From the NCBI GenBank assembly GCA_947628835.1, contig CANRBL010000002.1, forward strand, positions 32,959-64,958: a DNA stretch of 32,000 bases, in the 5' to 3' direction. Positions within the stretch are counted from its first letter, which is position 1. Each line of letters begins with the position of its first letter. This DNA comes from an uncultured Clostridia bacterium. Its GTDB lineage: Bacteria; Bacillota; Clostridia; TANB77; CAG-508. The notes under the pieces were generated by a model. That model was not told the DNA's origin. It saw nothing but the letters and a program-made list of their open reading frames with translations, and made no database searches. A program made the translations under genes and the position numbers. Positions 19,874-24,587 of the stretch are shown here, in pieces.

Positions 19874-21019
19874 TTATTTAATTAATTTTAAATAATCTAA
19901 TTTTATAATATTTTTTACTAAATTATTATTATAATTATTATTAATTAAATAATTATAATATTTATTATATTTTATTTTTCCAATTATTGAATAATTTTTC
20001 AAAATATTTTTTATTATTTGCATATCTATATTTTTATTATTATATTTATTAATAATTATTTTTATTTTTTGATTATCTATATCTAATTTATTAATATAAT
20101 TTTCTAAAATAATAGTTGTTTTCTTTATTTCTAATATATTTCCTTCTGTTAAAAATACTATTTTATCACAATTTTTTATTAATTCTTTTTCTATATTTAA
20201 ATTTAATTCTGTTGTCATTTCTATAATAATCAAATTATAATTATTTTTTAAATTTTCAATAAAATAATTAATATTTATATTATTTTTTATTTTTTTATTA
20301 TAAACAAATTCTAATCCTGATAAAATATTTATTTTTTTATTATAATTTTTTATATAATTTTGTATATCATTAAATTCAGAAAATTCTTCTTTTTTATTTC
20401 TTTCAATTTCTAAAATAGAAAATATATCTTGACTAAATAAATTAAAATCTATAATTAACGTTTTTTTATTTTTTTTTGTCATAAAATTTGCAAAATTTAT
20501 TGTAAAAATACTTTTTCCACTTCTTGCAATTCCAGTTACTACAACTATTTCTCCTTTTTTTGAATTAGCATTTGTTATATTATTTATATTGTTTTTATTG
20601 TTATTTAAAATAATTTCTTTTAACATTTGTATTTCTTTTTCTAATTCTTCTTGTGTTTTTATTTTATCTTTTTTTATTATTTCAATTAATTGTTGTAAAT
20701 TTATTTCATTATTATAATAAATATCATTTATATTATTTTCTATTAAAATATTTTTTAATTTTTCATTTTGATTTTCTAAAATAAATATAATTCTTATATT
20801 ATTATTTATTTTTTTTATATTTTTTATTAATTCTTCAAAACTAATTTCTCCATATATACTTTCACTAATTACAATAACATCTATATTTTTATTTTCTTGC
20901 ATAATTTCTATAATTGCTTCTTTATAAATAATATCCTTACATATAATTTTTAAATTTTCTTCTTCTGATAATTTTTCATTAAGATTTGGATTACCTATTG
21001 CTGTTAATATTTTTTTCAA
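19874..21019 (-). CDS. CpaE/TadZ-like ATPase: receiver-like N-domain plus ParA/MinD-type P-loop domain
   Basis: 381 aa. The N-terminal ~120 aa have a beta-alpha receiver-like pattern (KILTAIGN...IDVIVISE...IRIIFIL) but no obvious acceptor Asp context. Then comes GEIVVVTGIARSGKSIFTINFANFM, a deviant Walker A. The TTG start overlaps the upstream TGA (TTGA). More than half the residues are N, I or K. Confidence 0.6.
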   Translation of the reverse strand: MKKILTAIGNPNLNEKLSEEENLKIICKDIIYKEAIIEIMQENKNIDVIVISESIYGEISFEELIKNIKKINNNIRIIFILENQNEKLKNILIENNINDIYYNNEINLQQLIEIIKKDKIKTQEELEKEIQMLKEIILNNNKNNINNITNANSKKGEIVVVTGIARSGKSIFTINFANFMTKKNKKTLIIDFNLFSQDIFSILEIERNKKEEFSEFNDIQNYIKNYNKKINILSGLEFVYNKKIKNNININYFIENLKNNYNLIIIEMTTELNLNIEKELIKNCDKIVFLTEGNILEIKKTTIILENYINKLDIDNQKIKIIINKYNNKNIDMQIIKNILKNYSIIGKIKYNKYYNYLINNNYNNNLVKNIIKLDYLKLIK

Positions 21020-22857
21020 TATTTATTTTTTTCCTCCTTCTTTTCTATTATACTTTTTTCTTTTTCAGAACAATCTATTTTTGTTAATATATGATTGTCA
21101 GCAACAAACATAAGACATTCTCCTTTTTTTAATGATTTTATTTCTATTTTTTCTTTTTCAGATAAATTGGTATTTTCTTGCAATATTTTTATATTGTCTT
21201 CTTCTAATGAAAAAAATGTTTTTATACTTGAATTATTTAAAATACTTCTTCCATATGTTCCATTATCTAAACTAAAAAGGTCTGAGATGTCTTGTGTTAT
21301 AGCAACACCACTTCCACCATATTTTCTGATTGTTTTAAATATTTTATATATAAAACTTGCAACTTCTTTATTTGATGTTACACCTATTAGCCTCCATATT
21401 TCGTCCATATAAATTGCTTTTTTTACATTTCTATCTATTTTTATCTTGTCCCAAAAAAGATCTATGAAAAGGTACATTCCATATTTTAAATTTTCTTCTC
21501 CTAATTCATATACATCAGCTATAATTAATTTATTATTTAATTTTACACTTGTATAATTATTAAAAAATTTTAATGAACCTTTTACAAATGGTATTAATTT
21601 TATTTGAAATTTTTTTGTTCTTTTATCTTTACTTAAAACTTCATATAAATCTTGTAAAATAGGCATATCTATACTTTCTTTAAATTGTTTTATTATATTG
21701 TCTTTATTTTCTTTATATAAGGATTTATCATCAAATGTAATTCCTTTTTTCCTATATGTTTCAATTAATTTTTCCTCTAATATTGCCTTCTCTTCTTCAT
21801 TTAGTTCACCAAAAATTAAATTAAAAAATCCTATTAATTTTCCTATCTTTGTTGCTAAATAACCATTTTCAGTATCTTCTACACTTTCCTTTCTAATATC
21901 AAAAATATTAATGTATGTTGTAGATGATGGTCCTATCTTTATTTCTGTTCCATGTAATTCTTTACATAAATTTAAATATTCTCTATCTGGGTCTATTACA
22001 TATTGTTCTATACCTAATATTCTGTATCTTAATATTAATAATTTAGTGTAAAATGATTTTCCTGCTCCACTTGTTCCAAAAATACACATATTTGCATTTT
22101 TATATTTATTTGTATCATATCTGTCTATGAATACCAATGAATTATTATATATATTTCTTCCTATATATATTCCGTTTTCATCAAATATAGATGACGAAAT
22201 AAATGGATATGTTGATAAAATTCCACTTGTTAATATATTTCTTTTGGCTATATTTTTTATATCTGTATTATTATCCATTATTGGTAAACAAGATAAAAAA
22301 AGCTGCTCTTCTCTGAAATTAGCTCTTCTTGTTTGCATTCCTCTACTTTGTGTTATTCCTTCTATTTTATTTAATATATATTCTAAATTTTTTATATCAC
22401 TACTATATACATTTATATAAATATATAGATAATATAAATCTTCATTGTTGACTTGCATTTCTTTTCTTATATATTTCGCATCATTATATGTATAAGCTAC
22501 AATATCCATATCTTGCCTATTTTGACTTGATGTTTGTAAATCAACTCCCACATTTCCTATATGATATGTTAAATCTTTTATTGCTTTATATGTATCTTGC
22601 TTTTCGTAAAATATTGATATATTCATATTTATGTTATTTTCTATTAATAATTTTAATAATAAATCATCTTGTTCTCTATAATAATTTACTACTATTAATC
22701 CTGTATAATATATTCCGTCTATTTCTAAAAATTTTGGATTTTGCATATTTATATATGATGGTGCTATATAATCTTTATCTGAAAATGTTCCATCTAAAAT
22801 AATATTTTCTTTTTTTATATTATTTTTTTTGAAAATTTTATTTATAATATTATTTAT
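21016..22857 (-). CDS. VirB4/TrsE-family ATPase of set 2, ATPase portion
   Basis: Walker A is CIFGTSGAGKSFYTKLL and Walker B is AIYMDEIWRLI, followed by GVAITQDISD. The track starts it at ATG 22746. However, the frame is open to 22881 and the conserved IAPSYIN...LEIDGIYYTGLIVVNYY stretch begins upstream of that ATG. AGGAGG lies at 22868-22873, followed by in-frame ATA codons at 22863 and 22857. The true start is uncertain. Confidence 0.8.
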   Translation of the reverse strand: MNNIINKIFKKNNIKKENIILDGTFSDKDYIAPSYINMQNPKFLEIDGIYYTGLIVVNYYREQDDLLLKLLIENNINMNISIFYEKQDTYKAIKDLTYHIGNVGVDLQTSSQNRQDMDIVAYTYNDAKYIRKEMQVNNEDLYYLYIYINVYSSDIKNLEYILNKIEGITQSRGMQTRRANFREEQLFLSCLPIMDNNTDIKNIAKRNILTSGILSTYPFISSSIFDENGIYIGRNIYNNSLVFIDRYDTNKYKNANMCIFGTSGAGKSFYTKLLILRYRILGIEQYVIDPDREYLNLCKELHGTEIKIGPSSTTYINIFDIRKESVEDTENGYLATKIGKLIGFFNLIFGELNEEEKAILEEKLIETYRKKGITFDDKSLYKENKDNIIKQFKESIDMPILQDLYEVLSKDKRTKKFQIKLIPFVKGSLKFFNNYTSVKLNNKLIIADVYELGEENLKYGMYLFIDLFWDKIKIDRNVKKAIYMDEIWRLIGVTSNKEVASFIYKIFKTIRKYGGSGVAITQDISDLFSLDNGTYGRSILNNSSIKTFFSLEEDNIKILQENTNLSEKEKIEIKSLKKGECLMFVADNHILTKIDCSEKEKSIIEKKEEKNKY

Positions 22858-22926
22858 TTTTATTTTTCCTCCTTTTTTCCTTTAAATATACCAAATATAT
22901 AACTTTTATACTTTATAATATATTAA

Positions 22927-23964: not shown

Positions 23965-24017
23965 TCCTTCCTATTTTTTACATGAAATTTACTTATTGAA
24001 TTTATAAACTGCAATGA

Positions 24018-24587
24018 TTATTTTTTATTTAAATATTTTTTTGAATTAAAAAATGAATAAAAAATTTCTTTAATTTCTTCTTTTTCTAAAATGTTATTTA
24101 CCATATTTCCACATCTCGAAAGACATTCTTTTATTTTAAAAAATCTTTCATTTAGTTCTTCTATAATAACTTCTTCTGAACTAATATTTTCAGATATAAT
24201 GTCTTTGTTAGAAATTATAATATAAAAATTTTTTGAAGATGAATTTGTTTCTGAATTAATATTATTTATATATTTTATATAATCTTCTGCTATTTCTTGT
24301 AAAAAATTTTCCTCTTTATTTTTTAAATTTTCTTTTATATTGGAAATATTTTTAGATAAATCTTTTTTATTACTTTGAATTAAAATTTGAATATCAAAAT
24401 TACATGTTTTTAAAAAAACTTTATATGAATTTAAAATTGCTTGTTTTTCTAAATCTGATTTTAAATTAAAATTAATTGGTAAAACTTGTATTATTTTTAT
24501 ATAATTTTTATTTTTTAATTTTATTATTCCATTATTAAATATTTTATCTATTGGAATCCATTCTTGTATAGAGATTTCTTTTTGTAT
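24018..24587 (-). CDS. Free-standing VirB4 N-terminal domain protein of set 2
   Basis: Not in the ORF track because it has no ATG, GTG or TTG start. I verified codon by codon that 190 codons are open from ATA 24587-24585 to TAA 24020-24018. A perfect AGGAGG lies at 24595-24600, 7 nt upstream of the ATA. The product IQKEISIQEWIPIDKIFNNGIIKLKNKNYIKIIQVLPINFNLKSDLEKQAILNSYKVFLKTCNFDIQILIQS... matches the VirB4 N-domain pattern. Confidence 0.65.
   Translation of the reverse strand: MQKEISIQEWIPIDKIFNNGIIKLKNKNYIKIIQVLPINFNLKSDLEKQAILNSYKVFLKTCNFDIQILIQSNKKDLSKNISNIKENLKNKEENFLQEIAEDYIKYINNINSETNSSSKNFYIIISNKDIISENISSEEVIIEELNERFFKIKECLSRCGNMVNNILEKEEIKEIFYSFFNSKKYLNKK

Follow-up and report, generated by a model that had tools for sequence, protein, structure and literature searches.

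The question raised by this locus is why a predicted nuclease gene should lie between the two parts of a VirB4 ATPase. The window, a 32,000-nucleotide (nt) stretch of DNA from an uncultured Clostridia bacterium (contig CANRBL010000002.1, positions 32,959 to 64,958, assembly GCA_947628835.1), encodes on its minus strand a VirB4 N-terminal domain (hereafter the N part), a DUF1016/YhcG nuclease, the VirB4 middle and ATPase part (the C part), and a ParA/MinD-superfamily ATPase. An earlier note on this DNA had read the nuclease either as a minimal selfish cassette in the junction or as the partner of the ATPases in a functional, possibly anti-mobile-element module. Comparison with related loci points to species-specific, promoterless cargo that was inserted into an ancestral split-VirB4 operon, an answer that we consider likely.

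The gene order is real. All four open reading frames (ORFs) lie on the minus strand where the earlier note had placed them: the N part (24018..24587, 189 codons), the nuclease (22927..23964), the C part (21016..22857, 613 codons), and the ParA-like gene (19874..21019, 381 codons). The gaps are as short as described. A 53-nt spacer between the N part and the first nuclease ATG (23965..24017) holds the nuclease ribosome-binding site GGAAGGAA, a 69-nt spacer after the nuclease stop (22858..22926) carries the AGGAGG ribosome-binding site of the C part, and the TTG start of the ParA-like gene overlaps the VirB4 stop by 4 nt as TTGA. A putative sigma-70-type promoter (TTGACA-17 nt-TAAAAT, 24617..24645, minus strand) agrees with the consensus at 11 of 12 positions and is the top match on that strand within 18400-25300. 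The same assignment is favored by a TTGAC...TATAAT pair at the equivalent position upstream of the N-domain gene in several relatives. A two-way terminator-like hairpin after gyrB (25183..25208, not assigned to either strand) forms the upstream limit of the transcription unit. Since a consensus scan found no terminator-like site between the four genes, including both nuclease-flanking spacers, co-transcription is plausible.

We next consider the split in VirB4. The N part matches positions 2-125 of the 752-position NCBIfam CD1110-type VirB4 model (4.8e-9, 35 bits) and positions 103-287 of the Mbov_0397 VirB4 model (6e-9). The C part matches positions 176-730 of the CD1110-type model (1.4e-85, 288 bits against a curated equivalog cut-off of 325). 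Because the two matches cover these separate stretches of one model, the parts add up to one VirB4, much as the earlier note had reckoned from 189 plus about 615 amino acids (aa; the C part has 613), with two polypeptides covering what a single chain covers in the model. Within the C part, Pfam recognized P-loop_TraG (8e-20), AAA_10, and DUF87; residues 222-600 resemble the solved VirB4 ATPase domain of PDB entry 4ag5 (1.8e-39), and Walker A (GTSGAGKS) and Walker B (YMDE) motifs are present, as befits a VirB4 ATPase domain. The N part gave no match in a PDB sequence search. It aligns with positions 13-200 of the 201-position TrsD/TraD model (NF041427; 3e-6), scoring 27.2 bits where the curated cut-off is 200, and the precomputed Pfam match of its orthologues is PF26593 (TraC-like). 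Its layout is that of TrsD/TraD: a VirB4 N-terminus homologue of ~200 aa, encoded adjacent to and upstream of the ATPase gene in 78/78 loci. The N part is therefore best called TrsD-like.

The related loci come from metagenome-assembled genomes (MAGs). Contexts were taken for several C-part homologues and then for 80 species-representative genomes, all of them MAGs of uncultured "Clostridia" recovered from the guts of humans, rabbits, chickens, and ruminants; among them is the genus UMGS1663, which has been assigned to the order TANB77 (PMC11680825). Loci compared with the window are labeled with L-numbers. The N and C parts are separate, adjacent ORFs in all 78 non-redundant related loci, with a spacer of median 52 nt (range -19 to 1512 nt), and N-part orthologues of 54-69% identity occupy the same position in ~80 loci. 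More than 5000 homologues of the C part were retrieved, and the best 120 are all 576-634 aa long, that is, C part only. The pairing of TrsD with VirB4 is also known from other systems (PMC12102498). The split VirB4 is thus an ancestral TrsD plus VirB4 architecture, neither damage nor an anomaly. An intron, an intein, or a known RNA element was rejected as the cause of the split, as both halves possess a ribosome-binding site and a stop codon of their own and the locus has no Rfam match to an intron or other RNA family. The C part is 71-83% identical between species whose GyrB proteins are 80-89% identical, and its ratio of nonsynonymous to synonymous substitution rates (dN/dS) within the species is 0.05. 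This conservation indicates that the operon is maintained and not decaying.

The nuclease is distributed quite differently. The earlier note had proposed scoring homologous split-virB4 loci for the nuclease, and none of the 78 has a gene between the halves, which argues for insertion. The nuclease occupies the junction only in the species of the window, in the window itself and in L001, L092, and L093 (four assemblies, 98-100% identical), and in no other species examined. A chimeric assembly or other artefact is not the explanation, because these three further contigs derive from other assemblies. The closest loci by C-part identity (L089, 83%; L090, 82%; L091, 80%) lack it. Conversely, among 82 other DUF1016 loci taken from metagenomes and viral contigs (652 kb in all), not one encodes a homologue of the N part, the C part, the ParA-like protein, or p266, the product of the last gene of the core operon.

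The inserted gene encodes a predicted PD-(D/E)XK nuclease, as judged from its domains and catalytic motif. It spans 345 codons from ATG 23964 or 341 from ATG 23952, where homologues start and which is the more likely start. Pfam matches to DUF1016_N (9e-42, 142.8 bits) and YhcG_C (2e-55, 187.1 bits) far exceed the cut-offs of ~32 bits. The D..E-L-K motif of the family (YIDLL..AIELK) is intact, with D233, E248, and K250 invariant in 32 homologues. A PDB sequence search with the nuclease returned no match, and its AlphaFold2 model (mean predicted local distance difference test score, pLDDT, 53.6) was too poor for a fold search. The family is very large and tightly conserved: a homology search gave 7965 close matches, with 75-77% identity to Lachnospiraceae proteins. 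A PHP-domain gene or a large serine recombinase neighbors the nearest relatives (L094-L099, 87% DNA identity), and more distant ones adjoin TnpV, NUMOD1, or GmrSD-like genes.

The limits of the DNA homology bear on how the gene arrived. Similarity to L094-L099 spans 22909-23956, from 4 nt before ATG 23952 through 18 nt after the stop codon. The promoter and palindromic leader of these relatives are absent from the window copy; the spacer at 23965..24017 is not homologous to the leaders of DUF1016 relatives, and a consensus scan found neither promoter nor terminator belonging to the nuclease. The GC content of the gene is 0.250, versus 0.149 for the N-part gene and 0.216 for the C-part gene. 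Other spacers of the island hold variable cargo in other genomes, including DUF1016 and PDDEXK_2 genes by gyrA, an AbiEii toxin, and a Gp49-like toxin.

Taken together, these features suggest a simple course of events. The host locus is probably a vertically inherited, ancestral operon of four genes (TrsD-like, VirB4 ATPase, ParA/MinD-like, and p266) near the replication origin of uncultured gut Clostridia of TANB77, usually between gyrB and gyrA, in which VirB4 is always made as two proteins. The nuclease ORF was probably gained by horizontal transfer, its source being one of the very similar genes that occur in many unrelated contexts of gut Firmicutes. The ORF alone would have entered the short spacer between the N and C parts, bringing neither promoter nor leader. 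We infer that transcripts from the promoter at 24645-24617 read through into the nuclease, whose own ribosome-binding site would serve its translation. Such an insertion was presumably tolerated because no reading frame was broken and the downstream VirB4 gene keeps its own AGGAGG and ATA; it would be harmless if the two VirB4 proteins are translated independently. The nuclease itself probably acts alone, as single-gene accessory cargo of the kind found in defence islands (candidate PDC-S02), with no VirB4 or ParA partner. The cassette proposed by the earlier note thus stands as an insertion, given the 78/78 empty junctions, the presence in one species, and the ORF-only homology. Its selfishness does not, because there is no mobility signature and the gene may simply be useful cargo. 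A transposon, insertion sequence, or integron cassette was rejected, with no repeats, duplication, or recombinase present and with operon genes on both flanks.

Several points weigh against the insertion of cargo as just described. All contigs found of the window's species carry the nuclease, so no empty site was seen within the species, and the ~80 loci inspected represent a part of the 238 related loci detected. The nuclease flanks have no terminal inverted repeats, target duplication, or recombinase, only AT-rich chance repeats. The ORF and catalytic motif are intact in at least two strain variants, and long-term dN/dS against homologues is ~0.1; the gene is therefore probably a working one and may benefit the host. 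Transcription and translation of the nuclease are deduced from consensus motifs only.

Differences between strain variants (the window versus L092 and L093) further describe the behavior of the gene. The nuclease shows six nonsynonymous and no synonymous changes, compared with 3:13 in the C part (one-sided Fisher p ~0.001 by hand calculation, from small counts and low-coverage contigs). Of the nuclease changes, five are from GC to AT, and the N-part gene has only one synonymous difference between the variants. Although the numbers are small, this pattern suggests that the nuclease, at this site, is under relaxed or diversifying selection rather than the constraint of an integrated subunit.

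Among the alternatives, we first weighed a free-standing selfish endonuclease of the homing type, which would cleave those TrsD/VirB4 junctions of related chromosomes that lack it and enter them through repair. A gene-only insertion in the spacer of two conserved genes, with neither recombinase nor repeats, is what such an element would leave, and the gradient of synonymous differences (0 in the nuclease, 1 in the N-part gene, 13 in the C-part gene) would fit recent spread with co-conversion. Phage T4 seg and mob genes are free-standing homing endonuclease genes that lie between other genes and are present in some genomes and absent from others. The window resembles them in having a nuclease-only gene in the spacer of conserved genes that is present in some genomes only. 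It differs in that no within-species polymorphism of presence and absence was seen and the junction is poorly conserved. Being AT-rich and poorly conserved between species, the junction is a poor homing target, and the contigs found of this species included none with an empty site to compare. The closest homologues lie in quite different contexts, not at VirB4 junctions. To our knowledge, DUF1016 is not recognized as a homing endonuclease family. Its members are widespread as ordinary single-copy chromosomal genes (PMC1189080). We regard homing as unlikely.

A functional module, in which the four products would form one ATPase-nuclease-ATPase system acting, for example, against phages or plasmids, is less probable still, and we think it very unlikely. 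The genes do share a strand, with short gaps and no terminator between them, and DUF1016 is a defence candidate in PADLOC, where the C part also weakly matches mad8 and DndH. However, co-occurrence is absent in both directions, which contradicts the module: the ATPase genes lack the nuclease in every other species examined, and the nuclease family lacks the ATPase genes in 82 loci. The PADLOC scan that the earlier note had called for went the same way. The nuclease matched only PDC-S02 (2.6e-130, full length), a single-gene candidate, and the mad8 and DndH matches of the C part cover the generic P-loop region only. The N part, the ParA-like protein, and p266 had no matches in PADLOC-DB v2, and no named multi-gene system combining ATPase and nuclease fits. 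The nuclease also lacks its native regulatory leader, and the 6:0 and 3:13 ratios within the species are unlike those of a tightly integrated subunit. As the remaining and least credible alternative, an ancestral nuclease lost elsewhere or a decaying remnant of a conjugative element could draw on the 12-22% GC of the region and on a GNAT gene fragment at 18504-18704, but it would require dozens of independent precise losses, it would not predict a nuclease so close to genes of unrelated contexts and taxa, and it conflicts with operon genes that are intact and conserved (C part 71-83% identical between species, within-species dN/dS 0.05).

Cargo insertion, the reading that we prefer, has precedents for the nuclease family. 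DUF1016 has long been predicted to be a PD-(D/E)XK nuclease family without a fixed gene neighborhood (PMC1189080). A DUF1016 gene lies between traU and traW in the F-type type IV secretion system (T4SS) operon of the Rickettsia felis pLbaR RAGE element (PMC4316617), and others lie between core genes of type I restriction-modification systems (PMC9881135). As in the window, these are lone DUF1016 genes inside a conserved operon that are absent from the operons of relatives and have their closest homologue in an unrelated organism. The window differs in that its nuclease sits exactly between the VirB4 halves, on a chromosome, near the origin, and in a lineage of the Gram-positive type; it also came without a promoter and without the palindrome that its relatives have in the leader. 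PDC-S02 is matched over its full length and relatives of the nuclease stand beside GmrSD-like, TnpV, and recombinase genes, whereas the window copy lacks a promoter region of its own and PDC-S02 is a defence candidate only. We know of no demonstration that PDC-S02 acts in defence.

The host operon can be compared with the TrsD plus TrsE pair of the staphylococcal plasmids pGO1 and pSK41 (MPF_FATA sub-class), likewise a small upstream protein and an ATPase protein of ~600-650 aa (PMC12102498). TrsD, a small VirB4 N-terminus homologue encoded beside VirB4, occurs in the pGO1 sub-class of Gram-positive conjugation systems and in Patescibacteria, which carry a chromosomal T4SS near the origin (PMC12102498). 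The window shares with the TrsD-VirB4 pairs of Patescibacteria a chromosomal location near the replication origin and wide conservation within a lineage (PMC12102498). Unlike both of these, the present pair matches the curated TrsD model weakly (27 bits versus 200), most C-part orthologues appear to be ATT- or ATA-started, and the host is a Clostridia lineage, TANB77. In further contrast, ParA-like and p266 genes lie downstream in place of trsF-M-type genes, and the locus lies between gyrB and gyrA. We found no paper linking TANB77 with VirB4; a Tad-like pilus cluster described for TANB77 (PMC11680825) is a different locus.

The nuclease gene contains a feature of interest in its own right. 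A GC-rich perfect palindrome, CTCGCACC-N3-GGTGCGAG (23643..23661), falls within the ORF at codons ~97-103 (K-L-A-P-M-V-R-E), uses rare codons, and is kept as the same 19-mer in homologues of 75-87% DNA identity. In most relatives the 19-mer recurs in the 5' leader, exactly 324 nt farther upstream (positions 3993 and 4317 in L100, 5409 and 5733 in L102, and 457 and 781 in L116), and the window has the internal copy only. In many human-gut contigs (L141-L173), in at least three flanking contexts, the gene starts exactly at the palindrome (residue 101), and several of these genes are frameshifted. It looks as though the palindrome-started form arose when the DNA from one copy to the other was deleted. 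The palindrome may serve as an operator, as a nuclease target, or in recombination.

Initiation of the VirB4 genes also deserves comment. The N part has an open frame with no ATG, GTG, or TTG after the upstream in-frame stop (24605-24603), and its putative start is an ATA at 24587, 7 nt past AGGAGG. The C part has a putative ATA start at 22857 or 22863; its first canonical start, ATG 22746, would drop conserved residues. The starts named in the earlier note hold insofar as both positions are open, with AGGAGG followed by ATA, but neither is an ATG, GTG, or TTG. With the best Shine-Dalgarno site as guide, ATT, ATA, or ATC starts were assigned to 64 of the 85 C-part orthologues and to 29 of the 76 for the N part (L005-L091), each with a strong GGAGG 4-11 nt before the start, and in many orthologues of both parts no ATG, GTG, or TTG lies between the preceding stop codon and the conserved N-terminus. 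Non-canonical initiation therefore appears to be the rule in this operon, with the proviso that DNA this rich in AT will often contain ATT and ATA by chance. Because of such starts, and because a canonical one is often lacking, gene callers truncate or miss genes of the operon.

Two further observations concern the VirB4 parts in relatives. The spacer between them is widened to 0.4-1.5 kb in L002, L009, L022, L057, and L061, with 4-15% GC and no ORF; cargo in the longer spacers (L002, L009, L022, L057, and others) was accordingly rejected, since this DNA of 4-15% GC has no ORF on the same strand. In L002-L004 (7962-8510 and 8475-10024), a 1-nt frameshift, seen in three independent assemblies, disrupts the N-part gene, and the C part is intact. 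The N part may be dispensable in some lineages.

The last two genes of the operon are less readily named. Pfam placed the ParA-like protein in CbiA (7e-7, 29.7 bits versus a cut-off of 25.4; CbiA/ParA), with weaker matches to AAA_31 and ParA. The earlier note had called it a CpaE-like ATPase joined by a TTGA overlap. The overlap and the ParA/MinD superfamily are borne out, whereas CpaE in particular is not: no CpaE-specific model in Pfam or NCBIfam matched, PDB gave no match, and there is no CpaF nearby. The gene has a GC content of 0.120 (0.034 at third codon positions), in a region (19000-21000) of 12.8-14.8% GC, compared with 30% in gyrA and gyrB. Its product is the least conserved of the four core proteins, although its N-terminal part is kept at the same position in relatives. 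The gene for p266 (18833..19633, minus strand) encodes a conserved, all-helical protein with no match in Pfam, NCBIfam, PADLOC, or PHROG. More than 3000 homologues were found, usually of 238-241 aa, and orthologues of 42-60% identity lie just upstream of gyrA in relatives. Its AlphaFold2 model (pLDDT 54.5) was too poor for a fold search.

The operon lies in the replication-origin region of a genome with ~25% GC. The minus-strand order is dnaA, dnaN, recF, gyrB (25259-27241), the operon, and gyrA (15390-17846). A tblastn map of ~80 species-level TANB77 genomes recovered the order gyrB, N part, C part, ParA-like, p266, gyrA nearly everywhere. In L038 and L091, and in L013 and L090 as far as the contigs reach, the operon is followed directly by the coupling-protein block that lies at 10243-15323 in the window, here in the same orientation and without gyrase genes. 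This direct joining is possibly the earlier layout.

Between gyrB and the operon promoter, on the plus strand, lies an unannotated structured RNA of ~420 nt (~24790-25215) whose predicted transcription runs away from the operon. It has its own consensus-matching promoter (TTGAAT-18 nt-TATAAT, 24758-24787) and the terminator hairpin at 25183-25208. The minimum free energy is -134.8 kcal/mol (z = -10.95), and the consensus fold reaches -108.4 kcal/mol with 135 pairs on the plus strand, compared with -4.1 on the other strand. Covariation supports the fold: 96.6% of cells are paired versus 34-45% in slid controls, with 74 compensatory pairs versus 22-31. The RNA is closed by a helix and has five long hairpins, together with a junction motif resembling UCGAGCnAAGAU that occurs five times. 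Of the 66 loci that include the 3' end of gyrB, 54 have the RNA, with a median distance to gyrB of 51 nt; it is absent where the operon is not beside gyrB. Neither Rfam nor ARAGORN gave a match, so RNase P RNA, transfer-messenger RNA (tmRNA), and other known RNAs were rejected as identities. A likeness of "AGUCC / GGCUUA" to helix P4 was also discarded, as covariation puts GCUUA in a local helix.

Elsewhere in the window, a second T4SS-like cluster (2510-8904, minus strand) contains a 408-aa ORF, three VirB2/TrbC-type pilin genes, a PrgI/VirB3-like gene, and a split VirB4. The latter consists of a 429-aa membrane-anchored N-part homologue (4422-5711) and a 655-aa VirB4 ATPase (2510-4477), which overlap by 56 nt and not by 50 as the earlier note had it. 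This pair is only 22-27% identical to that of the operon studied here, yet it is split at the same place. None of the other T4SS components sought (VirB3/PrgI, VirB6, pilin/adhesin, and coupling protein) is encoded within the operon itself; a coupling protein (10243-11658), a weak PrgI-like ORF, and the second cluster just described lie 6-18 kb away in the window. An inverted syntenic block after gyrA (10243-15323) encodes DnaI-like, DnaB_2, p93, p297, and the coupling protein. Its DnaI/DnaC-like helicase loader is encoded by two overlapping plus-strand ORFs (14327-14944 and 14862-15323, 205 and 153 aa). Two ORFs are also present in relatives such as L002, and L091 has a single 329-aa gene; this could be a real split, a frameshift, or recoding. 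Between p266 and gyrA are a histidine-phosphatase gene (17911-18468) and a fragment encoding the 66 C-terminal aa of a GNAT acetyltransferase (18504-18704). The phosphatase had no tblastn match in related loci (the result for the GNAT fragment was not tabulated). The two suggest further cargo, and cargo decay, in another spacer of the island.

As a find, one more DUF1016 nuclease riding in another operon is ordinary, and it should not be taken for a novel system of defence. More novel are the conserved host operon and the neighboring RNA, and the pair of palindromes may also outweigh the nuclease insertion. TANB77 is an uncultured gut order that has been linked to immunotherapy response. On an interpretation that we hold to be evenly poised, these bacteria carry a domesticated, T4SS-derived machine as core genes beside the replication origin, composed of the TrsD-like protein, VirB4, the ParA-like protein, p266, the nearby coupling protein, and the second pilin cluster. 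Vertical inheritance, purifying selection, and weak AUU/AUA starts would be its hallmarks, and the essential chromosomal T4SS of Patescibacteria would be its analogue. Such a machine would be undescribed for TANB77. As the insertion shows, neither adjacency nor translational coupling of the two VirB4 genes is required, and on this interpretation the nuclease would amount to a natural experiment in which tight coupling of the TrsD and VirB4 genes proves dispensable.

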